A model generated the notes under the pieces. That model did no database searches and was not told where the DNA came from. It saw only the letters and a list, made by a program, of their open reading frames with translations. From a virus (lineage: Duplodnaviria; Caudoviricetes), in IMG/VR virus record IMGVR_UViG_3300025502_001322, positions 64,001-128,000 of that record: DNA of 64,000 bases; one strand, written 5' to 3'. Numbering within the stretch: position 1 is the first letter of the stretch; every line of letters begins with the position of its first letter. A program made the translations under genes and the position numbers. Of the stretch, positions 12,194-44,177 are shown piece after piece.

Positions 12194-12201
12194 TATTTAT
12201 A
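12194..12201 (-). promoter_or_regulatory. Late promoter TATAAATA (minus strand)
   Basis: Exact TATAAATA on the minus strand about 35 nt upstream of 12159. Confidence 0.5.
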
Positions 12202-12413
12202 TGAACACTCATTATATAAACCAATTAAACAATAAAATACAGATTTTAAATTCTGGCCCAAATAAGCAGATTATATTAAGCAAGCAGGAAGCACAAGGAC
12301 TGCACAATGAGGTTTACCGGCTTCTGGCTAGGATAGCAGAGCTTGAGGGGATTCAAGAGCAACAGCCCACCGAGGAAGTTATTCGAGCAAATGTAGATGG
12401 TGGTGGTTGGTAA
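12201..12413 (+). CDS. Hypothetical protein
   Basis: 70 aa ORF. Confidence 0.55.
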   Translation: MNTHYINQLNNKIQILNSGPNKQIILSKQEAQGLHNEVYRLLARIAELEGIQEQQPTEEVIRANVDGGGW

Positions 12414-27422: not shown

Positions 27423-27835
27423 AGTTTACCTTCAGATCTGAGTCTAGCTCTAATTTCTGTTGCACTTATATTGTGTATTTCTTCACCAAGATCATGTTCT
27501 GTAAATGTGTACCCGACGCCACGCCCGTAACTGATATCAACTATGTTGGGCACTTGCATTATAATGTATTCCTCACCATATGTAAAGCCTTCTTCAAACA
27601 GTCCTTGAGTGATCTTGTTTTTTACGATATTGAAGTTAAATGGATTATCATCCTGTACAGTTGAGGTACGGTTAGCACCGGCATCCTTGCCAACAATACC
27701 ACCCACGTCTCTAATCATAATACATACTTGTCCTGTTTCTAACAGTGCTTTTTTAAACAATGCCGTGTGTCCTGGGTGCCATGGCTGCCACCTCCCAAGT
27801 AGCATAGTGGTTGGCTTCTGATTATCAAACTTCAT
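27419..27835 (-). CDS. HxGH-family nucleotidyltransferase (cytidylyltransferase-like)
   Basis: LGRWQPWHPGH and ISATEIR. Confidence 0.8.
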   Translation of the reverse strand: MKFDNQKPTTMLLGRWQPWHPGHTALFKKALLETGQVCIMIRDVGGIVGKDAGANRTSTVQDDNPFNFNIVKNKITQGLFEEGFTYGEEYIIMQVPNIVDISYGRGVGYTFTEHDLGEEIHNISATEIRARLRSEGKL

Positions 27836-28041
27836 TATTCTTTCACTCCATATTTTATATGCGTGTACCAAACACGCTCGTGTGCATAGTACAACACAAA
27901 TTTAATTACCAAATCTGCCGCAAATACCAGACCCACTGCTTTAGCTGGTAAGCCAAACCACCATGCTATAATAACAGTAACCGTGCTGGCAATTATTCGC
28001 CATGTAACTGCTTTTGCTAAATGTCGTCTTGCTGAAACCAT
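27835..28041 (-). CDS. Small membrane protein, DUF2061-like
   Basis: RHLAKAVTWRIIAS...YYAHERVW. Confidence 0.75.
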   Translation of the reverse strand: MVSARRHLAKAVTWRIIASTVTVIIAWWFGLPAKAVGLVFAADLVIKFVLYYAHERVWYTHIKYGVKE

Positions 28042-28042
28042 G

Positions 28043-28372
28043 TTATGTCATCCTTTGTAGTACTGCCCACATAATTGCACCAGTAATCACTGCGCTTGTT
28101 AACAGTGCTGTATAAAATCCAAAACTGTATAACCAAACAAACATAGGAAAAAACATAAGACTCAGCGCAACAAAAAACACAGTCTCGTAACTAAAGGTAC
28201 GAAATGTTTCAAAAGGCACACCTGCGTGGTGCATCAATACCAATGTAATAACACTTACAAAAGGAATGCCCATAATAAACGCTCCCAGTGTGGGAGTTCG
28301 TTGTGCAATAGTGCTGACTATGCCTATTAGCAAGCCACCTATTAGACTTTTAATTACAATATCAATCAGCAT
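28043..28372 (-). CDS. Small multi-pass membrane protein
   Basis: 109 aa with four hydrophobic segments. Confidence 0.65.
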   Translation of the reverse strand: MLIDIVIKSLIGGLLIGIVSTIAQRTPTLGAFIMGIPFVSVITLVLMHHAGVPFETFRTFSYETVFFVALSLMFFPMFVWLYSFGFYTALLTSAVITGAIMWAVLQRMT

Positions 28373-28393
28373 TTCTTTCCATGTACTTTTGTA

Positions 28394-28828
28394 TTATCTC
28401 TGTAAAAAAGGCCACAAGTACTTGCTTACGATTTCTAACAATTCTTTGTGTGTGTCATCAAACCATTCCGCAACATGATAATCATATTCGTCTTGTTCTA
28501 AAGGCTCAAACATTTTGTTTGTATCTTCAAATCTACCTTCTTTAATTGTGTCCATCCAGATGGTGTAGTCTGCACCAAAGCCTGCTCTTGCTTGTTTTGT
28601 GGGTGCAATAAAGTCTGCTATACAGATCTTACCTGCCTTGACAATGCCGTCTGCCAGATACTTCATGCGTAGTGCTTGTCGCATACGCCCTTCTGGTGAA
28701 AAATCCCAGTCGTCGTATTCTTTTCTAACAGCGTCAGCGTTGATATGTACTGCACTAATTAGTTTAGCAAATGGTTCTGCTAGTGTAGTTTTACCACTAC
28801 CGGGTAATCCGCAAATTAAAATTTTCAT
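28394..28828 (-). CDS. Adenylylsulfate-kinase-like P-loop kinase
   Basis: ILICGLPGSGKTT, NADAVR, DFS..GR.RQA, DFIAP. Confidence 0.8.
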   Translation of the reverse strand: MKILICGLPGSGKTTLAEPFAKLISAVHINADAVRKEYDDWDFSPEGRMRQALRMKYLADGIVKAGKICIADFIAPTKQARAGFGADYTIWMDTIKEGRFEDTNKMFEPLEQDEYDYHVAEWFDDTHKELLEIVSKYLWPFLQR

Positions 28829-29423
28829 TGAGATGTTTCTCCATTCGTTTTGCTATTGCCTGATGTCCTGCTTCTAATGGGTGACCACCAGGACCTTTGT
28901 CACAATTGTAAGTCATTTGTGTCAGTGGCTCCAGGAATGTTTCTGTGTCTAAGACGCCGCCGACGGCGTAAAACATGCTACGTTTTTCTAGAATGGTATT
29001 CATTGAAGTCATAACGTAAGGTTGTTCCATTCTTTTAAAATGATTCTGTAGTGCGATTATCTGAGTTATAGTTCGTTGCCACGCATAGTTATCATCATAA
29101 AATTCTTTGTAGTACTTATCTAGCCACTTCTTGTCGACCTTGTTTAAGCGTTGTGTGCTGGGATTAACCCCTTGAATATCGGCACCACATATACTTAAAT
29201 CTACCCTACCACGTTCTGTCCATTGTACTATAATTACATCATACCGTTCCCAGACAGTTCGCTCGACGGCTGTTGTAAATATCCAGTCATTACTTGCACC
29301 AGACTTTCCTAAGTTAAGAACGTCTACGCCATAAAAACTATCTGCTAGTAAATTGGGCCAGGCGTTTCTGGTATCTGATAATTCTTCCCCGTAGGTAAAA
29401 CTATCACCTATACATAGAATCAT
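28797..29423 (-). CDS. SGNH/GDSL-family hydrolase or acyltransferase
   Basis: GDSFT (block I), NLGKSGASN (block II), GHP (block V). Confidence 0.8.
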   Translation of the reverse strand: MILCIGDSFTYGEELSDTRNAWPNLLADSFYGVDVLNLGKSGASNDWIFTTAVERTVWERYDVIIVQWTERGRVDLSICGADIQGVNPSTQRLNKVDKKWLDKYYKEFYDDNYAWQRTITQIIALQNHFKRMEQPYVMTSMNTILEKRSMFYAVGGVLDTETFLEPLTQMTYNCDKGPGGHPLEAGHQAIAKRMEKHLNENFNLRITR

Positions 29424-29521
29424 TTGTAGATAAAAGGATCCCTCTTACGAAGTTCTTTAAGTTTTTTACGATATGCTATTTCTAATTTAATCCTGTTTAC
29501 TATATTGCGTAACCATGTCAT
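29420..29521 (-). CDS. Basic 33-aa micro-protein
   Basis: Hand-translated MTWLRNIVNRIKLEIAYRKKLKELRKRDPFIYK; its stop overlaps the next start (ATGA). Confidence 0.6.
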   Translation of the reverse strand: MTWLRNIVNRIKLEIAYRKKLKELRKRDPFIYK

Positions 29522-30299
29522 TGAATGTGTCCTTTATAAGTTCTGCGGCAGCCGTGTGTGCTGATTCTCTTGGGTGTGTTGTATACATAGGGTATTTATT
29601 TTCCACAGCCCATTGGTAAAAACCTCTGGGAGCAACTGTTTCTCCCTGATGTGTGCCTTTGGGAAACCAAAAAAACTTCTCCCAGTCTATACTGTTATAA
29701 ACTGCGGCAATACTGGGGTCTCTACCTTGTATATTATGATTATCCATAATACAGTTATCAGCGGCAGTAAACATATAAGGTATTGACATTTGTTTGAGGT
29801 ACATTTGTAGGTATAGTATCTCTTTAAGAGTAGTGTATGTTTTCCAATACATGTCAGCACCTACATGTTTAAAGTACGACTTAGCAAAGTCTGAAACTCC
29901 TGTGAGTCTCGCCCTCTCATTATGCTTGTTCTGCAATGTCTTTTGTTTGTGATCAACTTCAAAAAAGTAAACGCTGGGGTCAAAATCATCATCTTCAGCA
30001 ACCCAAGGACTAATGTTATACCAGTGACCACTGCGTTGACCAGTGTCGTAGTTAAATTTAAATTCGTACCTAGCAGGAAAAGTCCACTGTACTATTACAC
30101 CACATCTACCTATCTGAGATATTTCATTAATGACATTACGAGCAATACCTTGGTTACTCCAGCCGGGGCCAGCAACTAATCTATAGTCATGGTCTTGACT
30201 TAACAGTGCGGGCCATGTAGATGCACTACCGGTTTTAACGTCCCAGTCTTGTAATTCGACTCCGTGTATAAAACTACAACCGCCTGCTACTATAATCAT
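29487..30299 (-). CDS. SGNH-like protein, paralogue 2
   Basis: AGGCSFIHG, GWSNQGI, VQWTF, THP. Confidence 0.7.
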   Translation of the reverse strand: MIIVAGGCSFIHGVELQDWDVKTGSASTWPALLSQDHDYRLVAGPGWSNQGIARNVINEISQIGRCGVIVQWTFPARYEFKFNYDTGQRSGHWYNISPWVAEDDDFDPSVYFFEVDHKQKTLQNKHNERARLTGVSDFAKSYFKHVGADMYWKTYTTLKEILYLQMYLKQMSIPYMFTAADNCIMDNHNIQGRDPSIAAVYNSIDWEKFFWFPKGTHQGETVAPRGFYQWAVENKYPMYTTHPRESAHTAAAELIKDTFNDMVTQYSKQD

Positions 30300-31428
30300 A
30301 TCCGGGTTTCATCATTTCAATTTGATTGTGTTTGTAATTGTGGTCTGACCAACAGTAATCGAACTCTCCCACAACATTATCTATTTCTATTCTGTATATG
30401 TCCAAGTGCTTACTCAGGTGTTGCCACACTGTTTGTGGATGTGCTGTTCCAAATGCTGAACGTAAGTCTATCTCACCTAACTCCAGATAACCTAAACTCA
30501 ATGAACTGTCTTCAGTATTCATGTTGTTGTCACCAAGCCACTTGTCAAACTCTGTCATTTGTTTATTATGCCAATCAAAGTCTCCTCCTTTGACAATGTC
30601 TACACCCCACTCTACATCGAACTCACCTGACCAGTACTGCAAATGTGTTATGGCGTCACACACTGTGTCTGTAAGTTTAGGTGCATGTTCGTCTCTAAAC
30701 ACTTCCATAAGTGTTTTACCAATCTGTGTCCAGTGCATGTAGACTCCACCAAATTTCCTATCGTATCCGTTAGTTAAAAAGCCTTTGCGATGTTCGTCTT
30801 GTAACTGGAATCTATTTGCGTGTAAGAACGTTGTTATCTGACTAGGACGCACAAACTGTGGTGTTGTTGCTAGTTTACGTTGACTTAGTACTAGACTTTC
30901 TAGTTCATGACAGATATTGTTTAACTGTCTGATTGCATACTTTGTGTCGTAGTCTGCTAGTATGTAATACTCACTTAAGTGTTCTACTGTGCCTTGTAAG
31001 ACTTCAAAATGATTGTGTAACTTGTTCATTACTTCATGCTTAATACCTAATCCCAAGTTAGCATCATTATATCCTACAGGATACTCGTCTCCAAATCGTA
31101 TTACGTCAGGTGTAAAGTAATCTTCAATTACATAACTATCTAAGCCCATGTGTTGCCACGTGCGACTGGCATTAAACATGTTGATCTGAAACACTACTTG
31201 ATTTAGTTCGTTACACAGATAGGTTAAGTTGCGTGGACTATGTGGGAACCCCATAAAGCAAAAGTTTTTTTCTAATAACTTTTTGTTACGCAACTCATGC
31301 GTCAGTGCTGATCGCCAGTCTCTTGCAAGTCTAGAATCGTTTAAGATAATGTCATAGTCTAGTGTCTGAGTCTTCTGAAACGGATTACGCAGTACTACTT
31401 TAACTTTCGATTGATTGCCACCACTCAT
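30274..31428 (-). CDS. Hypothetical protein at the end of the radical SAM array
   Basis: 384 aa ORF overlapping both neighbours; no motif recognised. Confidence 0.7.
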   Translation of the reverse strand: MSGGNQSKVKVVLRNPFQKTQTLDYDIILNDSRLARDWRSALTHELRNKKLLEKNFCFMGFPHSPRNLTYLCNELNQVVFQINMFNASRTWQHMGLDSYVIEDYFTPDVIRFGDEYPVGYNDANLGLGIKHEVMNKLHNHFEVLQGTVEHLSEYYILADYDTKYAIRQLNNICHELESLVLSQRKLATTPQFVRPSQITTFLHANRFQLQDEHRKGFLTNGYDRKFGGVYMHWTQIGKTLMEVFRDEHAPKLTDTVCDAITHLQYWSGEFDVEWGVDIVKGGDFDWHNKQMTEFDKWLGDNNMNTEDSSLSLGYLELGEIDLRSAFGTAHPQTVWQHLSKHLDIYRIEIDNVVGEFDYCWSDHNYKHNQIEMMKPGYDYSSRRL

Positions 31429-32719
31429 ATACGTCTGGTCTCGCTTTTAGAATTTCGTCTATTGTTATTGAATCGTTACGTATTTCTTCTAATTGTAACA
31501 TACGATGCTTGCCTTTTGCAAGACCTTGTTGGTATTCTTCTGGCCACTGCTCTGCAAACGTTGGTCTTGTTTTTAGTTGAGTTAAGACATCACGTAATGC
31601 TCCGCTGGTTTTTGGCACTATTTCATCAACCCAATCATCTAGTAGTTTTCTTGGCAGGGCAAGCGGGCTCATTATAATGTCAGGTGAAAAACTAAAGATA
31701 ACTTTAGCCAATATGCCTACCCCGTTCTCTTGTGCGAACTTCACAATGTTTTCAACTTCAAACATGCCCAGTAACGTGAGAGTAAAGTCTACACGTAGTT
31801 GTCTACTATGTTGTGTTATCTGTTTTACTTGCCTAAAGTTTTCCTGCCATTCAGCCCAATTTAAACCTGTACGTATATATTCACCTATTTTGCCTGTGCC
31901 ATCTATACTAGCACATATCTGCCAGTCACGCAACTCACTCAATATGTCGCATAAGTTAGCGCCTTTGTATTTTATTCTACTTAGGTTTGTATTATAACGT
32001 GCGTATACCTTGGCGCCGTCGCCTTGTTCTACAATCTGCTTCATGTACCGCCAGTGTTGCTCGTACATTAAAGGCTCACCACCCACCCAGTATATTTCTT
32101 CTACTCTACTTTCGTCTACTGCTTTGGCAAACTCACGTTCTATCTGGTCGTCTTGGTATTTAGATATCTGTTCACGTATGTCTGGCTTCATCCAGTTGTT
32201 TTTAGGATTGGACCAATCTATCTGATCATGTTTCTTTTGTTCTGATTCCCAGCTAGAACTTAACATGTCGCCACAAGTACGACACTTAAAGTTACATAAG
32301 TTGCTAAACCTATAATCAAAACTAACAGGCTTTAATGCTGTAGAGCCATCATAACCGGTCATCCAGGCTACATTCTGAAACTTATCTTTAAACAAATTCC
32401 AAAAGTAGTCCTTGTATACGTCTGTGTTTAGTAACTTGTTATTGCATACGTCACACTCGGGAAGAGTTTCGCCATTCATCATGCGTCTGCGTACACTACG
32501 CATATGCTCGCCATTCCACCAGTCATCTAATGATTGTGGATTGTACTTGCCTGTGCCAGACTTAGTGTCTATATACTGTGTAAAGTTTTGCGCTGGCTCT
32601 CTACTGGCACAGCACATACGTCTTTCTGTCTGTGGACTTAGATATGTGTGTACCCAAGGCGCCATACAAAAACTTGGACTAGGTGAGGCTAGATATTTTA
32701 ATGGAAACACTTTAATCAT
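31400..32719 (-). CDS. Radical SAM protein with N-terminal Cys cluster (SPASM/twitch-like), type A
   Basis: CMAPW...MCC...CDVC; NLCNFKCRTC; VGGEP; YNTN; SIDG. Confidence 0.88.
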   Translation of the reverse strand: MIKVFPLKYLASPSPSFCMAPWVHTYLSPQTERRMCCASREPAQNFTQYIDTKSGTGKYNPQSLDDWWNGEHMRSVRRRMMNGETLPECDVCNNKLLNTDVYKDYFWNLFKDKFQNVAWMTGYDGSTALKPVSFDYRFSNLCNFKCRTCGDMLSSSWESEQKKHDQIDWSNPKNNWMKPDIREQISKYQDDQIEREFAKAVDESRVEEIYWVGGEPLMYEQHWRYMKQIVEQGDGAKVYARYNTNLSRIKYKGANLCDILSELRDWQICASIDGTGKIGEYIRTGLNWAEWQENFRQVKQITQHSRQLRVDFTLTLLGMFEVENIVKFAQENGVGILAKVIFSFSPDIIMSPLALPRKLLDDWVDEIVPKTSGALRDVLTQLKTRPTFAEQWPEEYQQGLAKGKHRMLQLEEIRNDSITIDEILKARPDVYEWWQSIES

Positions 32720-32727
32720 AATCGTAT

Positions 32728-34098
32728 TTACACAATCAAGTAAGGGAACAAACTTCTCCAGTCAGTCGCTCGACGTCTGTCAAGTTCGTCTAGATAAATG
32801 TGTAAATTTTCTATCTGTTCAGAATCGTGTTGGCTAACTGTCTTTAATTGTTTTTCTAACCCCCGTAGTCTAACAAAAACCTCACGTTGTTCTATTGTGC
32901 CTTGCTTTAGTGTATCGTATATACGCTTAAAGTCTTGTTGCCACATACTGTAAGAAAAAATCTTGGGGTGTAGGTATTGTTCTGGCCCAATGTAAAATTC
33001 AAAATAGTGTCCGATGTGTTTGTTGTCGTTATAGCGATTAACAACTTCGATCAGTTCGGGCATGGTTTTAATGGTCATGTTTGTTATTGTCTGATTAATG
33101 TTTAAGTTAAGCCAATCAGACTGTTGACTTGCCCATGCTAATCGCTGTTCAAATAGTTCTAAGTCCAGGCCACGCCTGACAAATTGTGCTGGCTCTCCCC
33201 AACAGTCTATGCTTGCTGTTAGGTCAAACCCTTTAATCGGTAGATGTTTTATTCTCTCGATGTAATTAATCCAGTGTTTTTCTGGCGCATTCATGTTACT
33301 GAAAATACCCAATCGTAGTTCACTGTTAGGCTTGCGCTCCAGTATATCTAAAATGTCAGTCATCAGTCGATGTTGTATAAACGTCTCTCCACCTAATAGA
33401 TGTAGTCTGCGTAAGTGTTGAACATTATCTGTTAACCAATCTAAAAATTTAGCATATAACGCTGTGTTATCCTGCTTGTTTGGTAGTGTATTTTTTAACC
33501 AAACACCCTTTTGTTTAAACTCACCGTATCTATTATTCTCTTGTTCTATCTGACTGCTTAGGTTACTGTTGCAGTATATGCAACTAAAGTTACAGGTGTT
33601 ATCTGCAAATATTTCCTGTATACGTTGTGTTATATACAAACTCCTGGTGTCAGTATCTAGTTCCAACGGTGTTAATCCTGGTATTAGGTTATTGTGATGT
33701 CTATCGCTGTGTCCACCTGCCGCTTCTATATCTCTACAATATTCACACCCATTACCAGGCCATTTGCCTTCAAGCATCTGCTCACGTGCCAGAATTTTAT
33801 TTGGTCCGTTGTGTAAGTTAAAATCATCTACACTTATATTGTCCCAGCTTGCACGGTGGCAACTGCTTGTCCTCGCTTCATTAAGCCATAGTGTGTTCCA
33901 GGTCCACTTGCTCTGACATGAGGTTGCTGTCTTAATAGGAAAGTATTTGCCCTGCTTGGAAAACTGCCGTACAAAGTCTGTAATCTCTTGGTCTATGCTA
34001 TCTATGCCGGTGGTTGCTCCAGCAACAAAGTCGACCCATTGGGGCCAGTTTTCGCCTTGGTGTTCTAGGTAGTCTGCTTGATCTATATTAGATCTCAT
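32728..34098 (-). CDS. Radical SAM protein, type B
   Basis: CQSKW...SCHR...CEYC; NTCNFSCIYC; LGGET. Confidence 0.85.
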   Translation of the reverse strand: MRSNIDQADYLEHQGENWPQWVDFVAGATTGIDSIDQEITDFVRQFSKQGKYFPIKTATSCQSKWTWNTLWLNEARTSSCHRASWDNISVDDFNLHNGPNKILAREQMLEGKWPGNGCEYCRDIEAAGGHSDRHHNNLIPGLTPLELDTDTRSLYITQRIQEIFADNTCNFSCIYCNSNLSSQIEQENNRYGEFKQKGVWLKNTLPNKQDNTALYAKFLDWLTDNVQHLRRLHLLGGETFIQHRLMTDILDILERKPNSELRLGIFSNMNAPEKHWINYIERIKHLPIKGFDLTASIDCWGEPAQFVRRGLDLELFEQRLAWASQQSDWLNLNINQTITNMTIKTMPELIEVVNRYNDNKHIGHYFEFYIGPEQYLHPKIFSYSMWQQDFKRIYDTLKQGTIEQREVFVRLRGLEKQLKTVSQHDSEQIENLHIYLDELDRRRATDWRSLFPYLIV

Positions 34099-35299
34099 AA
34101 CCCATGGCCCGTGCTATCTCTGGATGGGTATCTGTAAATTTCTCTTTACGCCACTTGTCTGCTAGATACATACGTTCATCAAACATAGGTAACTTATCGC
34201 CTGAGCCGTTTTCAATAAAACGTATTACGTTATCTACTTCAGTCTGATACTCTGGCTTCCAGTCTATGCTTTGTAATTTTACTTTAACCAGTGCTTGTGC
34301 GGCAGGTGTCATGTTCTTAATACACATCTCTGCAGGATCATGTAACATGTTAAAGTAGACAGTACCAAAGCCCTGCTTGTCTGCCCAGTCTAAAAGTTCG
34401 TTTATGTAGTAGACGTTTTGTATATTAATAGTAAAACAGAGTTGTGTAGTAATGTTTGTTACTTCTTTCTGCACTCCATGCACACGTTTAATAATCTCTT
34501 CTGCACGATTCCACTTAGCGCCGTAACGTTCGTATTCAAAACGCTTGCCAACATTGTCTATACTAAATGCAATATCTACTCTACCAAACTCTCGCCATAT
34601 GTCTACAAACTCCTCGTCCCAGGTTGTGGCGTTTGTATTGTAATGTATATCTATATGCTTGCTGTCGCCTGTTCGAATAGCAGTTTTAAGTAAGTTAAAA
34701 TGTTCTTTAATTAAGAAAGGTTCGCCGCCAGTAAATTCAAAGTACTTGATATTAGGCAACAGTGTTTCTAAGTTCTGCCAAAAGACCGGTGACTTACGAG
34801 GCCACTGACCTTCCCGTAGCATTGTGCGTGCTAGGTGATTTTTATTGTCGTGATCTTCTGTAACGTAGTCTATTTCTTCCTGGGCCCATTTGCTTGACGA
34901 CCATGAGCCACATATACGACACTTTAAGTTACAGATGTTACCCAGTTTTAAATCTATAAACCACAGTTGGTCGGGGTTGTCATTCTCCCAGTCAATTTGC
35001 TTATACAAGTCTCGAAGTCTAACCTCACTGTTAATACGTTTACTGTCTCTGCCAGCATCTTCTTCTGCCCAACAGCGTTTGCAAGTTGCAGGCTTCTCTC
35101 CACGTCTAAACTGTTGCCGTAAGTCTTGCATGTACTCACTTGCATAAATCTCTTCCAGTGTGTGTTCAGACATTTTGTACTTTGTGCCATCTGGTTTGAT
35201 TATCTCATCATCTGCAAGACAACATGGTCGAGCAGTACCGACTGGTGATGTTTCAATGCTTATCCAGGGCAAGCCACAAATTGTGTTAGGCAGAGACAT
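34088..35299 (-). CDS. Radical SAM protein, type A
   Basis: CGLPW...PCC...CKRCW; NICNLKCRIC; TGGEP; YNTN. Confidence 0.88.
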   Translation of the reverse strand: MSLPNTICGLPWISIETSPVGTARPCCLADDEIIKPDGTKYKMSEHTLEEIYASEYMQDLRQQFRRGEKPATCKRCWAEEDAGRDSKRINSEVRLRDLYKQIDWENDNPDQLWFIDLKLGNICNLKCRICGSWSSSKWAQEEIDYVTEDHDNKNHLARTMLREGQWPRKSPVFWQNLETLLPNIKYFEFTGGEPFLIKEHFNLLKTAIRTGDSKHIDIHYNTNATTWDEEFVDIWREFGRVDIAFSIDNVGKRFEYERYGAKWNRAEEIIKRVHGVQKEVTNITTQLCFTINIQNVYYINELLDWADKQGFGTVYFNMLHDPAEMCIKNMTPAAQALVKVKLQSIDWKPEYQTEVDNVIRFIENGSGDKLPMFDERMYLADKWRKEKFTDTHPEIARAMGYEI

Positions 35300-36734
35300 T
35301 TAGGTCCTTGAACTCAGGGAATGTTTCCCAGAAGTTTTCATTACGTATGCCATCTAGTTTTGCTATTTGTTTCTCAAACTCAGGCCATTGTTTGTAATTG
35401 TCCTGTGCATTTATTAAACTTAAAATACTCTTGTAACCGTTAGTAGCACGACGTAATCTATCCTTAGGGTCTAACCATTCTATGTGTTTTTCATAGGCAG
35501 GCGTAATTACTCGGTCCTTAAACTCTTGTGGGAATATGTCTGGTCTGTACCAATCAGGTGACTGACATATGTTAATGTTCCAGTCCTTTGCTGTAATTAG
35601 TCCTAGGTTTGTCCATTCTTTGTGAAAATCTAGTACATGTAAAACATTCATGGCACTAATAGTTGAACTCACATAAAAATCTACGTGAGGTACTTTAGCC
35701 ATCATCTGAAATCTATTTTGAATAGCCTGTTCCCAGTCAGTTCCTTTACGTATAAGTTCTGCTTGTGGCCCCATTGCATCTAAACTGGCACCTACACTTA
35801 CATTTTTAAAATGTTTCCAGTAGTCATATACGTGCTTGTCTTTAAAACGCATTTCACTAAAGTTAGTGTTGTACTGAATACGCACATCTGTTTTACCATG
35901 CTCTATTAGTTTCTCTAATAGGTAGTAGTGTTCCTTCATTATTAGCGGTTCACCACCTGCAAAGTATACCTGCTCTAAATGTGGAATATGTGGTTCCATT
36001 TGTTCTAGCATGGAAGACTCATCACCAGCAGTGTACTCTACACGTGCCATATCTCTGCCTAATACGTCTGGCTTTTTACCATATAACTTTACATGGTCAT
36101 TATACCAGTTACTGCTAAAGATAGGACCACAACTTCTACAGCTAAAGTTACACAGGTTACTGAACCTGACATCCCAATAGCGTATCTTAAATTCTTCGTG
36201 ATGTCCATCTGACGCAGTTTGTTTTATTTCATGTACATTGTGTCCGTAGGTTTTATTAGCATCGTTGCGCATACTGAATGCTCCGTGTTGTTCACGTTCG
36301 TAACAATTTTTGCATTCTTTACAGGGTTTGTCATCTAACATGTTACGGCGCATCTGCTTGTATGGATCTTGATTCCATACTTCTGCCATTGTGTTCTTAC
36401 GTAGATCACCAACTGGGCTCCAGTAATCACTTAAACAGCACGGATAAGCTCTACCATCCGGAAAAGCATGCATGTGTACCCATGGCAACATGCAGAAGTT
36501 TTTACTTTCAGTTAGTTTGTATTTTTGATCATCGTCTAGCTGGTCCCATTTTATGTGTGTTGGTTTGAGCGAATTATAATCGTAACCAATGTTAATTTTA
36601 GCAGATTGCTTCCCGAACTCCACAAGTTTAAGTTTTATCGCCGGGTCGGTTATTTTATCTGCAACATAATCCTCATACGATGGCCAGTCTGATCCGGCAA
36701 ACTGGTCATATGCTTCTTTGTGTAGTTTGTTCAT
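35286..36734 (-). CDS. Radical SAM protein, type A, with N-terminal G-x-DWP module
   Basis: CMLPW...PCC...CKNCY; NLCNFSCRSC; AGGEP; start at an ATGA overlap. Confidence 0.88.
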   Translation of the reverse strand: MNKLHKEAYDQFAGSDWPSYEDYVADKITDPAIKLKLVEFGKQSAKINIGYDYNSLKPTHIKWDQLDDDQKYKLTESKNFCMLPWVHMHAFPDGRAYPCCLSDYWSPVGDLRKNTMAEVWNQDPYKQMRRNMLDDKPCKECKNCYEREQHGAFSMRNDANKTYGHNVHEIKQTASDGHHEEFKIRYWDVRFSNLCNFSCRSCGPIFSSNWYNDHVKLYGKKPDVLGRDMARVEYTAGDESSMLEQMEPHIPHLEQVYFAGGEPLIMKEHYYLLEKLIEHGKTDVRIQYNTNFSEMRFKDKHVYDYWKHFKNVSVGASLDAMGPQAELIRKGTDWEQAIQNRFQMMAKVPHVDFYVSSTISAMNVLHVLDFHKEWTNLGLITAKDWNINICQSPDWYRPDIFPQEFKDRVITPAYEKHIEWLDPKDRLRRATNGYKSILSLINAQDNYKQWPEFEKQIAKLDGIRNENFWETFPEFKDLNVSA

Positions 36735-38074
36735 AATGTGTTGTACCAATCTGCTAGTTCTGGAAAAGTTGCTGTCAAGTTCTTTCCTCTACGTTTGTCG
36801 TACTGCTCGTGAAACTTTTTAAAGTCGTTGTGTAGTTTGGGCATGTCGAATGTGTCTGAATGTGGTGTCTCCACTACATCCAAGTAATCAATTAATCTTA
36901 TGATGTGGTTAATCTCATGTTCGTGTAACAACTGCCCAATTGGTCTTGCCATCTGATAATCCAACCATGTGCGTAAACGTTCTTTGTGCTTAATTCTAAT
37001 TTCTTTAGGGAACACTAACGGACTTTGGAAACTAGGGAAGCGTAAGATATTAAGCGTAAAACTTACAGCATGTTTACCGTGTTTTGACTTCCATCCAACT
37101 AATAAATCTAAAAAGTCAGTTAGACTTTCCAAACACAATGCATTAATTGTACACATTACATGTAACCCACGTAATTTATTTCTATGTACTTGTAGTATTT
37201 TGTTTATGTTATCACACCATAGTTCCCATTCCAGCCCATCACGTATATACTCTGCATGACCGTTAACACTTTCATTGCTGGTGTACACATCAATTGGTTG
37301 GTCTACACTGTCAAACAACCTACCTACATCTATATCCTTACCTAAGTTACTGTTAATAGCCAGACGTGTTTTGCTTTTACCTTTGTTTTCTTTAAACCAA
37401 TCAATAAGTTTCCAAGTGTAGCCACTCATCAAAGGTTCGCCACCTGTAATGCGTAGTTCGTCTAGTGTTCGGTGTAGGTCTGATTCCCACCACTTGAAGA
37501 ACGCCTCAACATAAGGATTTTCCTCGCCGAATTTATACAACTGCGCACTGTCATGAGCATGGGTAAAATGATTGCGCCCATCAGAAACGAGCCCAGTATA
37601 ACTTCCGTTTGATTTAATGTCCTTAACCCATGTACTACTAAAAGCAGGGTTGCAATAACTGCAAGCAAATTGACAAGTCCTATCGAAACTGATTTCCAAA
37701 GTTCGTAAGTCCACGTCTCTTGTTGCATCTGATTGATATGCATCGTCTAATTCCTTTATAGTGTATATTTTACTTTTATAGACACGGTCAGAAATATTAT
37801 CACGGTTGATATCTTCAATCTTCCAGCAGTACTCACAACCTGGCGGACGTTCTCCTGCCTGCATCTGCGCTCTGTCTTTTTTCTTTTCAGGCGTGTTGTG
37901 TATTGCTTTGGGATTACGCTTAACTTCTTCAATATCAACTTTGTGTGCTGGTGGGTGATGACAACTGGTACTCATGCCACTGCCTAACCATATGGTGGCG
38001 TTATACCATTTCGCTCCACAAAAGCTCGCTGACTTTGTGTCTAACATTTGTTTCTTAAATTCTAAATCATTCAA
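36731..38074 (-). CDS. Radical SAM protein, type B
   Basis: CGAKW...SCHHP...CEYCW; RTCQFACSYC; TGGEP. Confidence 0.88.
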   Translation of the reverse strand: MNDLEFKKQMLDTKSASFCGAKWYNATIWLGSGMSTSCHHPPAHKVDIEEVKRNPKAIHNTPEKKKDRAQMQAGERPPGCEYCWKIEDINRDNISDRVYKSKIYTIKELDDAYQSDATRDVDLRTLEISFDRTCQFACSYCNPAFSSTWVKDIKSNGSYTGLVSDGRNHFTHAHDSAQLYKFGEENPYVEAFFKWWESDLHRTLDELRITGGEPLMSGYTWKLIDWFKENKGKSKTRLAINSNLGKDIDVGRLFDSVDQPIDVYTSNESVNGHAEYIRDGLEWELWCDNINKILQVHRNKLRGLHVMCTINALCLESLTDFLDLLVGWKSKHGKHAVSFTLNILRFPSFQSPLVFPKEIRIKHKERLRTWLDYQMARPIGQLLHEHEINHIIRLIDYLDVVETPHSDTFDMPKLHNDFKKFHEQYDKRRGKNLTATFPELADWYNTL

Positions 38075-39301
38075 TTACCATACTCCATTGTCATTGAGTA
38101 TTTTTCCATACTCAGGAAATATTGTAACATAATCTTCATTTCTATACAAGTCTTTTTCTTTTGTCCAAAACTTAAACTCGTCCCAGGGTGTGTTGACATT
38201 TAACTCTGATTCATCAAATAACTTTGGTTTTGTTTCAAGTAGTTTTACTATAGACGTTACATTATTTTTTCCTATAAGTTCTACATGAGACTCTAAATGT
38301 TCACGCACAATAGGTTTAATTTTGTCTGGTATTACATTTACGCAATAATAACTGGGCCACTGTACAAGTATTACAAACGGTGTGATCTCAATATTGTGAA
38401 ACATCTTAAACTTTACAAACTGTTCATATACTTCATGAAAGTCCCATACATTAATAGCACTTACACATATGACAGGGACGATACTTACACTATAGTTTGA
38501 CTGTTCTTCTAGTTTGATAAAATCACATAGGTTATTATATACTATTTTCCAATCTGCTGGGTGTCTCACGTAGGTTATCTTTTTGCCCACTGCGTCCAGA
38601 CTGATGTTAACAGTTACATTTTTAAAACCAAGTAAAATGTTACGCCAGGCTTCTGTCAACTTATGTGTGCAGTTTGTGCTTATCTTTAGGTCTATGTCTT
38701 TGGCTTTTCCTGAATCAACAATGCGAGTAAGCAGTTTAGGAACCATGTTATCCAACAGTGGCTCCCCACCATACAGTTCTATTTTTTCTAAGTTATCAAC
38801 ATAGTTATATAGGTCATCCAACTGCTCATCTGTAAAATGTTTTTTAAACTTTTCTCTGGTGTATATTGTATTAGACAACCCATGTTTTTCTTCATAGTGT
38901 TTGCCTTCTATGTGGTACAAGTAACTGTCGTAACTTTGACATGTTCTGCAACGCAGGTTACATATATTACTTACTTTAATGTTTAAGTTTTTAGGTCCTT
39001 TAGTGTAATCTGTGTTAACAAAATCAAACAAGGATAATCTACTTAGTTGATTTACTCTTTCACTTCTATGTCCTAATTTTTCTTCCGACCAACATCTCTG
39101 ACACATGTCTAATTGTTCGCCGTTACTGGATCGCTGTCTAGCATCTTCAAGTTCAGGGCTTGCCCAAATCTCCTTAAAAGTTTTATTAGGAAATTTGTAT
39201 GCCCCGCCCCCCAGCGCAGTACATGGGCTATATGATCCTGCAGGATCTACAGTAGCATCTACATAGAATGCTGGGCAGGTGTTTTCATTAAACTTGTGCA
39301 T
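38075..39301 (-). CDS. Radical SAM protein, divergent type A
   Basis: CPAF...PCT...CQRCW; NICNLRCRTC; YGGEP. Confidence 0.85.
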   Translation of the reverse strand: MHKFNENTCPAFYVDATVDPAGSYSPCTALGGGAYKFPNKTFKEIWASPELEDARQRSSNGEQLDMCQRCWSEEKLGHRSERVNQLSRLSLFDFVNTDYTKGPKNLNIKVSNICNLRCRTCQSYDSYLYHIEGKHYEEKHGLSNTIYTREKFKKHFTDEQLDDLYNYVDNLEKIELYGGEPLLDNMVPKLLTRIVDSGKAKDIDLKISTNCTHKLTEAWRNILLGFKNVTVNISLDAVGKKITYVRHPADWKIVYNNLCDFIKLEEQSNYSVSIVPVICVSAINVWDFHEVYEQFVKFKMFHNIEITPFVILVQWPSYYCVNVIPDKIKPIVREHLESHVELIGKNNVTSIVKLLETKPKLFDESELNVNTPWDEFKFWTKEKDLYRNEDYVTIFPEYGKILNDNGVW

Positions 39302-40658
39302 GGTACCTACATTCTGACCACCAGGATTCCATTTCCGGGAAAGTTTCTAAAAAGTTTGTATTTCTACGTTTATCGTGTTCATTGAAAAATAAAAAGAAGT
39401 TTCTCTTTTGTTGTTTAATGTACTCTCCATCCAGTTGTTGGCCTTCTCGCATCCAAGCAATGGTTCTTCGCATACGTTGTACCTCAAAGTCTTTAAAACC
39501 TGTACTGTATTCTATATTCTCTTCCATCCAGTCAGCAACTTCGTCTAGACGTTGTGCATAACTTTCTGGTAGTATTTGTAAACTCTGCCAAGCAGGTTGT
39601 CTAAGTAAAGGAGTATCAAACCAAATTTTATTGTACTCTTTATTGTGTTGACGTCGCAATTCTAATATCCAGCCTAGCAATTTTTGTAATCTGATAACAC
39701 TTAAATTATTCATTGTAATAATAAATGTTAGACTGTTCTTGTATTTAACTTCACGTAGGTAATGCTCTACGTATCCTGTCAAGCGTTGCATTTTTAAACC
39801 ATCACGTATGTACTCTGCTTGTACACCCATGCTGTCTACACTAACATACTGCATAAAGTGTTCTAAGTAGTTGCTCGAACACATCTTCTTAACGTATTCT
39901 ATGTACTTGATAAACAAACCATTCTCAACACTGAAGTTACTGGTAACATTTAAATGTAAATCAGGCTTAGGCAATGCTAACACGTACTCAAACACACGGT
40001 ATGTGTTACGATCCATTAGTGGCTCACCACCAGTCATTCTAAAGTGTTCTAGTTTGGGGTATAGTTCTGGCCACCATTTCCAAAATGCGTCAACATATGG
40101 ATTTTCTTCTCTATTAGGAACAGGTCGCCTGTCTCCCATAAAGTGTTCTGGTGCATTGTGTGGTTGTATTGTTGGGTAAGCACCTTTGTCTTGTACTTCT
40201 TTTGCCCAACTTGAACTAAACTGTGGGCTACAATAACTGCACCTAAGGTTACATGCGTTGTTAAAATTGACTTCCACATAACTAGGTATAACATCTTCTT
40301 GCCAGTCTATTGTGGCAGGATCCATTTGTGCCCAGGGCTCACCTGAACGATAATGTCTATCACTCAAGTTACCTGCATCTTCTATTGCCCAACAGTAACT
40401 ACACTCTTCAGGACGCTTGCCCTCTATCATTAACTTACGTTGTTGTTTTTTATGCTCTGTGTTATGTAGTGCGCTGGGATTCTTTTGTATTGCCGCTAAA
40501 GGTATTTTGTGCAACGGTGGATGATAGCAACTGTTGTTAAGTCCTGTGGGCAGGTGCAAACTTACTTGTTTCCATTTTGCATAGCAAAGACTAGGACCCA
40601 ACTGGTCCTTCATGGCCTCTGCCGCTGACATAAATTCGCTTTGATCGCCTTTTGTCAT
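39288..40658 (-). CDS. Radical SAM protein, type B
   Basis: CYAKW...SCYHP...CSYCW; NACNLRCSYC; TGGEP. Confidence 0.88.
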   Translation of the reverse strand: MTKGDQSEFMSAAEAMKDQLGPSLCYAKWKQVSLHLPTGLNNSCYHPPLHKIPLAAIQKNPSALHNTEHKKQQRKLMIEGKRPEECSYCWAIEDAGNLSDRHYRSGEPWAQMDPATIDWQEDVIPSYVEVNFNNACNLRCSYCSPQFSSSWAKEVQDKGAYPTIQPHNAPEHFMGDRRPVPNREENPYVDAFWKWWPELYPKLEHFRMTGGEPLMDRNTYRVFEYVLALPKPDLHLNVTSNFSVENGLFIKYIEYVKKMCSSNYLEHFMQYVSVDSMGVQAEYIRDGLKMQRLTGYVEHYLREVKYKNSLTFIITMNNLSVIRLQKLLGWILELRRQHNKEYNKIWFDTPLLRQPAWQSLQILPESYAQRLDEVADWMEENIEYSTGFKDFEVQRMRRTIAWMREGQQLDGEYIKQQKRNFFLFFNEHDKRRNTNFLETFPEMESWWSECRYHAQV

Positions 40659-41632
40659 ACTACTCTTCTCTTTGATCCGTTACGTCTAACATCAAGTGTT
40701 AAACAATGTATACCGGCTTCCCAAAACATGCCGTGTCTTACGGGAACATGGTGTACTGTTATGCCATGTGCTTCTACTTCAGGTAACTCTATACTACTTA
40801 CAATGTTTTCGCTGTCCACAACTAAAACGTTACTTTCAAATGCTGTGTCTTGTGCGAGTCCTTGCCACTGTTCCAGCCACGTAAATAAATTTTTCCTGTT
40901 ACCCTGTTGTATGTCTTTTAAACTTTCACTATACTTGAAAGTTCTATTGTTTAGTTCTATAATTGTTTTGCTACGTAAGCATTGTGGTACCCACGAGATG
41001 TCAACACAAAACACTGTGTCATCATCCGTCATGTAAAAGCCTTGATCTATGTGGCCCCATCGACCTTGTCTTGTGTCTACGTTTTTTACTAGAGTGCCTT
41101 CACAGTTTCTCTCCATCCAGTCATACCCATTTTGGTTACCCGGACCGTAGTCATTAATAATTATGCTATCACCTGCCTTAAACATTGTAGCAGTGTGCCA
41201 TAACAATTTATTTTTATATTCGTGATGATACGGTGTGGCAACCATTTGGTAGGATAACTGTTCTAGTATAGGCGGTGGCTGACTTAACCAGTTATGTCCT
41301 TGCATAAACAGTTGTGCAAATACATCATAATAACATAAGCCGTCCCAGTATCTATCCTTCATACTTGTATATGTTTGGTATACACAATCGCCATATACCA
41401 AATACTGATCACGTGGCACAATAGGATATATTTGACTAGGCTGTAGATCGCCTATTGTTGGGCGGTGTACTTTAATGCCTAACTTAGTTAAGTAGTTGGC
41501 TAAGTTATCTAAATCCTCTTTTGTTTCTGTTAGTATTTTATCTAACTCAGGCACGCCTGGATATGTAGGTCTGCAATCTCCTACTATAACTTCTTCAAGT
41601 GGATCCCATTCAGTCCAGACTGTCACCAACAA
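40655..41632 (-). CDS. Amidinotransferase (glycine/inosamine-phosphate amidinotransferase family)
   Basis: TEWDPLEEVIVG, PRDQ, GHID, GIHCLTLDVRR (catalytic Asp/His/Cys pattern). Confidence 0.88.
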   Translation of the reverse strand: MLVTVWTEWDPLEEVIVGDCRPTYPGVPELDKILTETKEDLDNLANYLTKLGIKVHRPTIGDLQPSQIYPIVPRDQYLVYGDCVYQTYTSMKDRYWDGLCYYDVFAQLFMQGHNWLSQPPPILEQLSYQMVATPYHHEYKNKLLWHTATMFKAGDSIIINDYGPGNQNGYDWMERNCEGTLVKNVDTRQGRWGHIDQGFYMTDDDTVFCVDISWVPQCLRSKTIIELNNRTFKYSESLKDIQQGNRKNLFTWLEQWQGLAQDTAFESNVLVVDSENIVSSIELPEVEAHGITVHHVPVRHGMFWEAGIHCLTLDVRRNGSKRRVV

Positions 41633-42086
41633 TCTCCTTTAAGTATTCTGGTTCCCAAAATGTATAATAATCTGTTTTTGCTAACTGCGTACGTGCGCCT
41701 AGTAGTTTCTGTTTATTTTGACACAGTATTAACTTATACTTGCCGTTATTAGTCTGCACACCGTTAATGTGTGTTTCTTTTTCACTGTCAGGTAAAAATA
41801 TCATATCAGGATATTGTTCTGCTAATCTAGCACAATGCTCTTTTAGTTCGTTGTGTGTCAGCGGGTTGTTATGACTTAACTTCTGTTCACTACAGATTAG
41901 TATCAGTACATCACACTTAATGTCTGGCAGTTCTTTAAGGTCTCTAATTTGTACATTAACTGCTCGCATCTTAGCCAGGTGTGCATAAGGACAAACACGA
42001 TTGCCGCCTAATTCTTCGTAAGGCATTACTAAACGTTTAATCCAGATTAATAGATGATTTTGTTGTTCATGTGTTGCTAAACGCAT
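41610..42086 (-). CDS. Hypothetical protein, DUF1415-like CPYA motif
   Basis: LGGNRVCPYA. Confidence 0.55.
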   Translation of the reverse strand: MRLATHEQQNHLLIWIKRLVMPYEELGGNRVCPYAHLAKMRAVNVQIRDLKELPDIKCDVLILICSEQKLSHNNPLTHNELKEHCARLAEQYPDMIFLPDSEKETHINGVQTNNGKYKLILCQNKQKLLGARTQLAKTDYYTFWEPEYLKEIVGDSLD

Positions 42087-43254
42087 TGTCTAACCTTTCG
42101 TTTAACTCGTCCCAATAACCATTATCTTCTATACCGACAGGAACACATAATGTTAAATGATTATTGTCATAATAACATCCTAATCCGCTGGGCATTATTC
42201 CACTCTCTAACAACTTAAGTTGTGTTATTGGGTTAACTAGCTCAACACTACACAAAATACCTTTGTGCCAGCCTTGTTTAATGTGACCCTTTGTTAGCCT
42301 CTCAGTAATTAAACTGTTGAACCTAGAAGTAATATTATTAAAGGCTGTTTCTTCTGGCCAATGTCTCCAGATCCAGTTTGCGGCATCAACTCCTGCCATG
42401 TTAGGACTCCAGGTGTGACTAAAACCAAACTTCGCACTTACTGATCTTGTGATATCCTCGCTCATACACACTGTGCTTAGTGGTGTGTATCCACCAGTAA
42501 TACTTTTACCACTTATTACCAGATCAGGTAAGATGCCCTGTGCATTGTGTGTAAATCGTGTACCTGTTTTACCATAGCCGCCCATGACATCATCAACAAT
42601 CAGTAAACATTCATACTTGTCGCACAACCTACGCACTTCATGCCACCAGGAATCCGACCAGGGGCGCAATTTTTCTATCCAGGGTATGGACTCCATAAAC
42701 ACTGTGCCGATATTGTGATTATTCTTTAATAGATCCTCTACCTGTTGTAAAGCGGCATTTTCATGATGTTGTCTTGCGACTATAGTTGGCCATATACCAG
42801 TATCCACAATGTGGCACCAGGGAACCTCGAATTCACCACGTAATATACTAGGCAAAAGACTTGTACCACTATACCCTGGTGCAAAACATATTATTTCCTG
42901 TCTATTGGGATTATGTTTTTTAAAATACAAATCTTTAAGGTAAAACGCAAGCTCTACGGCATCAGTACCACTAACTGCCCATGCTACACTGTGTAATCCA
43001 CTTTCCTGTGTGATATTGTTGGCAAGTAAATCTACAGACTCGGTGCTTTCGCTTGCCTTGTAGTTTACCCATGATACTTTATTTGTTATACCATGTACTG
43101 CCCAGAGTATATTCCAGTGGTTGTATCCCCAGATAAATGTCTGATTGCCACAACTGATGTCAAACAATCTTCCAGCATTGGTGTCACAATACCACCTGTC
43201 TTGTTTGCTTACGAGTAAGTTTACTCGATCATCGGTTAACTCTGCTAATTCCAT
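42067..43254 (-). CDS. Class III PLP-dependent aminotransferase
   Basis: SGTDAVE, FMES, LIVDDVMGGYGKTG, PDLVISGKSITGG, HTW. Confidence 0.9.
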   Translation of the reverse strand: MELAELTDDRVNLLVSKQDRWYCDTNAGRLFDISCGNQTFIWGYNHWNILWAVHGITNKVSWVNYKASESTESVDLLANNITQESGLHSVAWAVSGTDAVELAFYLKDLYFKKHNPNRQEIICFAPGYSGTSLLPSILRGEFEVPWCHIVDTGIWPTIVARQHHENAALQQVEDLLKNNHNIGTVFMESIPWIEKLRPWSDSWWHEVRRLCDKYECLLIVDDVMGGYGKTGTRFTHNAQGILPDLVISGKSITGGYTPLSTVCMSEDITRSVSAKFGFSHTWSPNMAGVDAANWIWRHWPEETAFNNITSRFNSLITERLTKGHIKQGWHKGILCSVELVNPITQLKLLESGIMPSGLGCYYDNNHLTLCVPVGIEDNGYWDELNERLDNAFSNT

Positions 43255-44177
43255 TACCAGCCTTCAACAATCCTGATAATGTCTATTTCTCTGGTCATGG
43301 GCTTTATGTTAAAATGTTTTCCGGTTAGGTGATGCTTTAGAAATTTACTTTGCTCTGCATCTAGTGTAACAATTGGCAGTCCTAATCGTTTTGATAGAAC
43401 AGTTTCCAATATCTTACTGTGTTCTACTGGGTCGTTGTCTTTAACTGACTCCCATAACTTTTCTAGTTCCACAAAGTCTTGTACACGCTTGTAAGGCCAG
43501 TCTTCCAACATGGTCATGTAAGTACCAAGTCGTGCGCCATACATTGCCCAGATGCCGTTAGTTATGTCCTGTCCAACACTTTGCCAAATACATAACTGAT
43601 CGTAATTCCTATTGTTTACTTTTTTATCAAACTCCAACAGCGATGGTTTAACTCCACGATCCAAACACATCTTTACACCTTCTCTAAATCCTGCTCGCCA
43701 TGCTTGAAAAGGTGTTTGGTTAGGATAGGTAGTACTATAACAATTATGCATTGCCAAATATCGTTTGTCGAAACAAAACTCCACTGCGGTATCATCACTA
43801 CCGTCTGAGTTTTCGTGTGTGCGCATATCGGCAACAAAGTCTTTTGTCCAGCAACTGATACCACCATTGCCATACATAAGTCCGTTTATCTCATTGCGGG
43901 CTCTCCATCTAAACACACAGTCTCGATTTGTATCATCTAGCTCTAACTGTATGTTAAAGAAGTCTGGATCAGGCAAGTTGTCACCGTCTATTAACACAAA
44001 CCTATATGTGTCACTTGCTTCACCTGCGGCTTTGTGTGCATTATCACTGCCTTGCACACCGTCCACACGTTTGGCCCAAGGTACTATGTTTTGTATTTTA
44101 ATCCAGAACTCTTCCTTCTTGGGCTCGTCATACGTTAAAAATATGACATCTAAATCTGCTACATCAATAATGTCCAT
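43254..44177 (-). CDS. GT-A fold glycosyltransferase-like protein
   Basis: VIFLTYDEP, RVDGVQG, LIDGDN (DxD), YGNGG, AWRAGFREGVKM. Confidence 0.7.
   Translation of the reverse strand: MDIIDVADLDVIFLTYDEPKKEEFWIKIQNIVPWAKRVDGVQGSDNAHKAAGEASDTYRFVLIDGDNLPDPDFFNIQLELDDTNRDCVFRWRARNEINGLMYGNGGISCWTKDFVADMRTHENSDGSDDTAVEFCFDKRYLAMHNCYSTTYPNQTPFQAWRAGFREGVKMCLDRGVKPSLLEFDKKVNNRNYDQLCIWQSVGQDITNGIWAMYGARLGTYMTMLEDWPYKRVQDFVELEKLWESVKDNDPVEHSKILETVLSKRLGLPIVTLDAEQSKFLKHHLTGKHFNIKPMTREIDIIRIVEGW

Follow-up and report, generated by a model that had tools for sequence, protein, structure and literature searches.

Radical S-adenosylmethionine (SAM) genes have been recorded in several T4-like phages. The host-recognition cluster of pelagimyophages, located between VrlC and gp14, contains radical SAM cassettes together with glycosyltransferases (Zaragoza-Solas et al. 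2020, PMC7029224), one environmental T4-like genome carries 12 radical SAM genes and an A-type Fe-S carrier (Nishimura et al. 2017, PMC5332604), and in cyanophage S-SCSM2R an amidinotransferase gene, a DegT-like gene and a radical SAM gene are adjacent (PMC12801897). In these three publications the genes are listed as "radical SAM cassettes" or "antibiotic synthesis genes", without an account of the family, its paralogue structure, its glycosyltransferase fusions or the micro-gene associated with it. The subject of the present analysis is an array of seven tandem radical SAM genes on a 64,000-nucleotide stretch of viral DNA (the window), which corresponds to bases 64001-128000 of the 289,070-bp IMG/VR phage IMGVR_UViG_3300025502_001322, estimated to be about 80% complete and abundant in salt-lake metagenomes, with 17 runs from the lake. 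The array shares the setting of the pelagimyophage and cyanomyophage cassettes, namely T4-like aquatic myophages, a position between a giant VrlC-type protein and fibre genes, and the company of glycosyltransferases. It occupies the middle of a module that is conserved among large aquatic T4-like (VrlC-type) phages and directly follows the tail-fibre genes. The enzyme family itself has already been catalogued; what has not been described is the multi-paralogue module, with its glycosyltransferase and micro-protein links, which is widespread in uncultured aquatic viral contigs.

Among characterised enzymes, one close counterpart is BtrN, the 2-deoxy-scyllo-inosamine dehydrogenase of butirosin (PDB 4M7S/4M7T). 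It has a single auxiliary [4Fe-4S] site, as is predicted for the array proteins, with the shared spacing C-x17/18-C ... CxxC, and, like the array, it lies in a neighbourhood of aminotransferases and sugar-tailoring genes. The likeness is limited to the twitch domain, which is C-terminal in BtrN but N-terminal in all copies found here, and the array proteins, longer by about 150-200 residues, have a C-terminal helical domain ending in an FPE motif. A second counterpart is the group of radical SAM/SPASM peptide maturases (SkfB, CteB, anSME, SuiB, PqqE, MftC), which combine a core of the same clan with a Cys-rich auxiliary domain and appear among the best fold matches (Z 10-12); a small conserved open reading frame (ORF) of the module may be the counterpart of their precursor peptide genes. 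The array proteins differ from these maturases in carrying the auxiliary domain on the opposite side of the core and in having only four Cys, sufficient for one cluster. Additionally, no PqqD domain or RRE (the recognition element of ribosomally synthesised and post-translationally modified peptides, RiPPs) was matched in the seven proteins or their neighbours at E up to 0.01, the micro-ORF is Cys-free and lies downstream, and the associated genes encode sugar enzymes.

Seven minus-strand ORFs span positions 31400-40658 of the window, with junctions that range from an 8-nt gap to a 19-nt overlap in the ORF list, and are transcribed in the order B3, A4, B2, A3, A2, B1, A1. All seven exceed the curated cut-off of 170 bits of the NCBIfam model NF033640 (N_Twi_rSAM, twitch domain-containing radical SAM protein), scoring 207-400 bits and covering positions 1-3 to 388-398 of its 398 positions, so the pattern of the array is not a product of chance. 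Genome-wide, the model has 14 matches, of which 13 exceed the cut-off. The CxxxCxxC cluster motif and the GGE SAM-binding motif occur in every array protein, and the pattern shared with the seven copies elsewhere in the genome reads C-x17/18-C ... CxxC(W/Y)xxE, about 50 residues, CNxxCxxC and GGE(P/T), followed by a C-terminal R/K-R..F..FPE motif that is also common to all 14. The first Cys block precedes CxxxCxxC by 43-61 residues in each of these copies. Of the seven, B1, B2 and B3 score below the cut-off of Pfam PF04055 (radical SAM) and the other four above it. As judged from their sequences, the seven genes are members of the radical SAM superfamily and of the NF033640 family. These ORFs, motifs and scores confirm what the first-pass annotation, made from the letters of the window, had described as seven consecutive abutting or overlapping genes, each with CxxxCxxC, GGE(P/T) and an N-terminal Cys block; the placement by profile models that it had suggested as a check puts all of them in one family.

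The N-terminal block corresponds to a twitch/SPASM-type auxiliary-cluster domain ahead of the core, as had been proposed. Supporting this assignment, Pfam SPASM is above its cut-off at the N-terminus of the four type A proteins (E down to 5e-13), the N-terminal part of a seven-protein profile aligns to the C-terminal twitch domain of BtrN (E 3e-4), and a profile built from the N-terminal block only matches its four Cys to four in the twitch region of BtrN (E 0.05), which are the cluster ligands of that enzyme. The permuted architecture is real but not new: NF033640 is already curated with the same domain order, an N-terminal four-Cys twitch domain followed by the CxxxCxxC core, and all seven proteins belong to it. 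Beyond the definition of that model, the phage has 14 copies, a conserved order of five core genes and a linked micro-gene. No paper naming or characterising NF033640, N_Twi_rSAM or any member was found in the literature, so the model gives the family a name but no function.

The paralogues have diverged widely, with pairwise identities of only 14-47% among the 14 copies; B2 and X217, a paralogue elsewhere in the genome, are 46-47% identical by BLAST and alignment. B3, B2, A3, A2 and A1 nevertheless have orthologues with 62-72% identity, in the same order, in two related contigs of 220-270 kb, L009 and L012 (B3 63-64% and B2 68-69% in these contigs; A2 62-64%; A1 67-70%). Divergent paralogues with conserved orthologues indicate old copies kept for separate jobs rather than recent or redundant ones, which upholds the earlier view of the seven genes as non-redundant. 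A3 has more than 6000 homologues, including orthologues of 70-85% identity on contigs of 200-370 kb (largest 369 kb). The two remaining genes are accessory: A4, with orthologues of 50-91% identity, occurs in L016 and L017 and is absent from L009 and L012, and B1 has no close orthologue among the relatives examined.

The division into two subfamilies, A and B, was retained in part. The B signature (C-x-x-KW, SC[HY], CxYCW) is genuine; it is present in B1, B2, B3 and X217 and marks a clade in a tree of 210 domains, where B2, B3 and X217 fall within a group of 114 members, 113 of them signature-bearing (support 0.92), and B1 joins at the base of a group of 126 (support 0.997). Type A is a paraphyletic remainder, whose signature is present but looser, as A4 has PCT instead of PCC. 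A profile search of 1.84 billion representatives returned 6,737 clusters (50% identity) at E 1e-30 or better. The Atlas clusters closest to A3 are 95-100% viral, and no close bacterial relatives of A3 were found in a species-genome collection. Cultured phages yielded neither near-identical DNA nor a carrier of the whole module; the only family members found in them, at 21-33% identity and in unannotated contexts, are those of Vibrio phages K566, K567 and D479 and Ralstonia phage RsoM2USA.

The favoured reading, to which about an even chance is given, is that the array performs successive radical tailoring steps on a sugar or glycan. This reading draws on the module neighbours, on sugar genes inserted into related arrays, on natural fusions and on the host-recognition setting. 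The array of the window has GT8-like genes, a class-III aminotransferase, an SGNH esterase and a kinase on its flanks; at a distance of 8-20 kb are genes for a sugar 4,6-dehydratase/epimerase, a DegT aminotransferase and a Gfo/Idh/MocA oxidoreductase. In L009 and L010 an epimerase/dehydratase and a DegT gene stand within the array, with a hexapeptide acyltransferase in front of it. In the 28.9-kb contig L024, six N_Twi radical SAM genes are interleaved with five GT2 genes, and in L025 a UDP-glucose dehydrogenase is added. Type B members are fused to GT2 in either order (P0284, glycosyltransferase then radical SAM; P0251, radical SAM then glycosyltransferase), both as continuous ORFs under translation table 11, and another is fused to GNAT (P0322); one fusion to a piece of an S8 peptidase is the sole peptide-related exception among the family fusions. 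Dispersed copies in the genome adjoin SDR, carbamoyltransferase, methyltransferase and UDP-glucose dehydrogenase genes.

The proposed mechanism would begin with SAM bound at the [4Fe-4S] cluster of CxxxCxxC, giving a 5'-deoxyadenosyl radical that would remove a hydrogen from one of the carbons of the sugar. An electron would then be accepted or given back by the N-terminal twitch [4Fe-4S] cluster in a BtrN-like manner, and by this analogy the chemistry may be oxidation, epimerisation or dehydration. Separate paralogues would act at separate positions or residues of one growing glycoconjugate, keto products would pass to the adjacent aminotransferases and to acyl, carbamoyl and phosphoryl transferases, and the product would probably decorate the virion (its fibres) or the surface of the infected cell. 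The identity of the substrate as a sugar, the kind of reaction and the eventual acceptor are inferences only. Large aquatic phages spend 8-10 kb of a conserved operon beside host-recognition genes on this family. If sugar editing is its role, the array would offer new oxygen-independent glycan-tailoring reactions and would point to a chemically unusual coat on virions or infected cells, with a bearing on host range, defence evasion and the ecology of lake and ocean phages.

Several observations weigh against this reading. As the family has no characterised member, the substrate is read from neighbourhood and fusion evidence alone. Most characterised SPASM/twitch enzymes act on peptides, and the array has a close link to a conserved micro-protein of 33 aa. 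The three accessory proteins of the module with the highest conservation (316, 384 and 121 aa) have no recognisable fold, some dispersed copies lie amid replication genes (RecA/UvsX-like, primase), and a 950-aa B-B fusion in L023, a bacterial-looking ENA contig of 8.8 kb, has no sugar genes nearby. Structure comparison does not separate the substrate classes: for the AlphaFold2 model of A3 (pLDDT 84), Foldseek and VIA-align return generic radical SAM cores (TM ~0.3, Z up to 12.6), with BlsE, SkfB, MoaA, CteB, anSME, viperin, SuiB and DesII within about 2 Z units of one another. A PDB sequence search with A3 alone returned nothing.

The strongest alternative, although an unlikely one, is peptide or protein maturation, in which the array modifies the 33-aa micro-protein or a tail-fibre protein to give a RiPP-like product or a peptide-anchored scaffold. 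One point in its favour is the micro-gene at 29420, the only candidate precursor mentioned in the first-pass annotation, which proved to be a conserved real gene linked to such arrays. Its stop overlaps the start of the esterase gene as ATGA, and copies are present in L009, L012, L016 and L017. A search with a degenerate pattern of its C-terminal 17 residues found it in at least 118 viral contigs, with exactly 33 codons in 106 copies. The matches listed comprise 111 distinct nucleotide versions; W3, L13 and E14 are conserved despite falling outside the motif used for the search, and all six codons occur at Leu and at Arg positions, a synonymous usage that points to selection at the protein level. 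The micro-protein is also more conserved than its neighbours, being 67% identical to the L016 copy, compared with only 35% for the adjacent 384-aa protein. Among the same matches, 50 loci include sufficient upstream DNA to be judged, and in 49 of them N_Twi genes precede the micro-gene on its own strand, the nearest at a median of 1.1 kb (1.9 kb from the array here). As a real gene that follows arrays of this kind, it could encode a peptide serving as substrate or scaffold, or else a small protein of the operon with no connection to the enzymes.

Further points in favour of peptide maturation are the preponderance of peptide maturases among the SPASM/twitch enzymes studied so far, the weak NCBIfam matches of the array proteins to PapB, SkfB, XyeB, YhhB and FxsB, and the location of the array, which comes immediately after Ser/Thr-rich fibre-like genes. 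Among solved structures, the GT8-like protein is closest to glycogenin (a five-orthologue profile finds glycogenin-1 with E 4e-5 across the N-terminal 110 residues), an enzyme that glycosylates protein Tyr. By analogy with mycofactocin, a peptide-derived, glycosylated cofactor, the GT8-like and other tailoring enzymes may decorate the peptide product. If the array does act on the micro-protein, it would define a new class of phage-encoded modified peptide. However, neither an RRE/PqqD-type domain nor a peptidase was detected in the module, although RRE-independent maturases exist and the missing RRE therefore only lowers the likelihood of membership in the RiPP maturases. The micro-protein, a Cys-free and very basic helix, is unlike the usual precursor cores, and its gene stands downstream of the array, coupled to the esterase gene. 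It is single-copy in this genome, is absent at L014, L015, L024, L025 and the other seven N_Twi copies of the genome, and has no match in cultured phages or NCBIfam. The 49/50 linkage could be plain synteny of one phage clade, and the family fusions, apart from the S8 peptidase piece, are to glycosyltransferases and GNAT. Under either the sugar or the peptide reading, the array provides defined sets of orthologous enzymes that can be expressed and assayed.

An intermediate possibility, considered still less probable than peptide maturation, is that the array, the two GT8 proteins, the 384-aa protein and the 33-aa protein together build a peptide-primed product, a phage-encoded RiPP-glycan hybrid made with a radical SAM subfamily of hitherto unseen chemistry. 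This could take the form of a glycan that starts from a Tyr in the micro-protein and undergoes radical editing afterwards, or of a peptide-derived, glycosylated small molecule resembling mycofactocin or PQQ.

Improbable, too, is an action on nucleotides or DNA, either viperin-like nucleotide modification or the start of a sugar-bearing DNA hypermodification. This proposal could account for the dCMP deaminase and thymidylate synthase genes at the edge of the block, for the weak matches to prokaryotic viperin and MoaA models, for viperin, MoaA and BlsE among the best folds, and for the B-B fusion of L023, which lies beside a DNA_alkylation gene. On the other side, the viperin model NF038283 scores 18.6-30 bits against a curated cut-off of 180, the module lies within the tail-fibre/host-recognition region and not in a replication region, its conserved partners are GT8-like, SGNH, carbamoyltransferase and kinase genes, and no ParB, base-exchange or nucleotide-kinase genes were found among the module genes scanned. 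The dCMP deaminase, moreover, marks the variable edge of the module. The DNA_alkylation gene of L023 is AlkD-like and stands immediately upstream of the fusion, followed by PadR, ClpX and ClpP.

The order of genes within the array bears on how its members cooperate. Along the window the types run A B A A B A B, no more than an approximate alternation, and one that is not conserved in relatives: L009 and L012 have B3-B2-A3-(A3 duplicate)-A2-x-A1, L016 has x-B-B-A4-A3-A2-A1, and L017 has x-B3-A4-B2-A3-A2-A1. With A4 and B1 as add-ons, the alternation in the window is incidental. Two or three family domains are naturally fused in about 30 of the 150 best representatives, and these fusions track the gene order (A3-A2, B3-B2, A2-A1); in P0222 and P0224 an A2-like domain stands behind an A3-like one, P0222 being one continuous ORF under table 11. 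Such fusions are compatible with neighbouring enzymes working together. A predicted complex of A3 and A2, the naturally fused pair, scored 0.00, which is not evidence either way. Obligate A-B heteromers, with each type A enzyme physically paired with a type B enzyme, are very improbable: the rough interleaving in the window and the two-member fusions, which make association of neighbours plausible, are outweighed by the order B3-B2-A3-A2-x-A1 in relatives, by the 4 B-type versus 10 non-B copies in the genome and by the joining of like with like (A-A or B-B) in 29 of 31 fused proteins, only P0226 and P0250 being mixed. Heteromeric partners and sequential steps on one substrate had both been derived from the interleaving; the former is thus weakened, while the latter, which agrees with the sugar-tailoring reading, is the better and more likely half.

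Table 1. Features of the array, its surroundings and related genes of the phage (window positions unless marked as genome positions).
Feature	Position	Strand	Remarks
APS-kinase-like P-loop kinase, 144 aa	28394..28828	-	Pfam APS_kinase 5.6e-10; syntenic in relatives
SGNH/GDSL-type hydrolase or acyl-esterase (DUF6071-like), 208 aa	28797..29423	-	Pfam Lipase_GDSL 6e-7, DUF6071 3e-5
Micro-gene, 33 codons	29420..29521	-	very basic product, ends RKRDPFIYK; AAGGA 8 nt before ATG
Conserved protein, 384 aa	30274..31428	-	overlaps A1 end by 29 nt; follows array in every relative examined
A1, N-terminal-twitch radical SAM, 439 aa	31400..32719	-	last transcribed; NF033640 305.7 bits
B1, divergent type B N-terminal-twitch radical SAM, 456 aa	32728..34098	-	NF033640 207.1 bits; accessory member
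A2, N-terminal-twitch radical SAM, 403 aa	34088..35299	-	NF033640 334.8 bits
A3, N-terminal-twitch radical SAM, 487 aa	35286..36749	-	NF033640 400.5 bits; Pfam SPASM 5e-13
B2, type B N-terminal-twitch radical SAM, 447 aa	36731..38074	-	NF033640 294.6 bits
A4, N-terminal-twitch radical SAM, 408 aa	38075..39301	-	NF033640 260.4 bits; accessory member
B3, type B N-terminal-twitch radical SAM, 456 aa	39288..40658	-	first transcribed; NF033640 318.2 bits; B signature
Protein directly upstream of array, 325 aa	40655..41632	-	phrog_25854, function unknown
Class-III PLP aminotransferase, 395 aa	42067..43254	-	Pfam Aminotran_3 4.6e-39
Very conserved protein, 316 aa	43254..44204	-	LIDGDN (DxD-like) motif; orthologues 60-71% identical
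GT8-like (glycogenin-like) glycosyltransferase, 283 aa	44477..45328	-	five-orthologue profile vs glycogenin-1
Paralogue of GT8-like protein, 276 aa	45325..46155	-	DADY motif; hhalign 98%, E 6e-14 vs 283-aa family
Further radical SAM genes, 502-634 aa	2382-3890, 5272-6945, 10357-12261	+, +, -	B12-type
Two A-type Fe-S cluster carriers	genome 2584-2883, 247370-247660 (outside window)		PF01521

The genes around the array (Table 1) follow a common plan in every relative examined. The module starts with fibre genes (one with Peptidase_G2), a gene for about 105 aa and two for about 260-280 aa, continues with a gene for about 120 aa and the very conserved gene for about 300-316 aa, and then enters the radical SAM array; behind it come a gene for 360-406 aa, the micro-ORF, the DUF6071/GDSL esterase gene and usually carbamoyltransferase and APS-kinase-like kinase genes. 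The carbamoyltransferase follows the array in L012, L016 and L017, and the SGNH esterase is syntenic in L012 and L017. The family of the 316-aa protein stands directly before the array in relatives; the protein has no PDB or NCBIfam match, and in the Atlas only viral hypothetical clusters correspond to it. Orthologues of the 384-aa protein are 35-66% identical, and searches of Pfam, PHROG, NCBIfam, the Atlas and the PDB (by profile) gave no match, as did Foldseek with its AlphaFold2 model (pLDDT 62). An amidinotransferase identity considered for the 325-aa protein was unconfirmed, with no Pfam or NCBIfam match. A protein of 2757 aa in the window matches the giant virion protein family phrog_10938.

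Two tandem paralogues of 333-334 aa (46528-47532 and 47548-48549, minus strand), rich in Ser, Thr, Gly and Ala, stand directly upstream of the pair of GT8-like genes. Their N-termini (MAYQTGDTILDDEYNVFATG) hardly differ; both resemble fibre proteins and are candidates for carrying the glycan. On the other side of the array, the minus-strand segment 26841-28828 holds the APS-kinase-like kinase, a 138-aa HxGH nucleotidyltransferase-like protein and two small membrane proteins, one of which resembles the DUF2061 piece that the kinase carries as a fusion in relatives. Taken as a group, these genes hint that a phosphate, sulfate or nucleotidyl moiety may be activated before its transfer.

With 3 occurrences against 6.9 expected, the T4 late-promoter motif TATAAATA shows no enrichment, and sigma-70-like promoters and terminators in 26000-45900 occur at chance level. 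Contigs from three metatranscriptome libraries align to the array at 80-93% likeness; as these come from relatives and DNA carry-over is possible, they are not proof of expression. Coverage of B1 and A4 was low in those runs and is not counted as evidence either.

Within the array, the start of B2 is a TTG, with an alternative ATG at 38047 that would give 438 aa, and the stretch of A4 has a lowered G+C of 0.355. A3 has an additional helical N-terminal stretch of about 80 residues and an alternative ATG at 36734 (482 aa). A3 and B1 share the motif G-x-x-W-P-x-(Y/W)-x-D-(Y/F)-V-A ahead of the twitch domain, within the helical extension; the N-terminal extensions of the copies X199 and X279 are unrelated to it.

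In total, the genome has 17 radical SAM genes and 2 Fe-S carrier genes. Two of the three further radical SAM genes in the window show a weak match to a B12-binding domain N-terminal to the core. Apart from the two A-type carrier genes, no flavodoxin gene was found in this genome, and the presence of such carriers accords with the environmental T4-like genome of PMC5332604. Two dispersed copies, X197 (genome region 196073-201139) and X234 (region 234567-236320), are tree sisters with 32% identity, each located beside a small Rossmann-type protein. The neighbour of X197 matches Pfam adh_short; that of X234 has no Pfam match and is similar by its N-terminal motif, as judged by eye. The two loci may represent a repeated pair of a radical SAM enzyme and a reductase.

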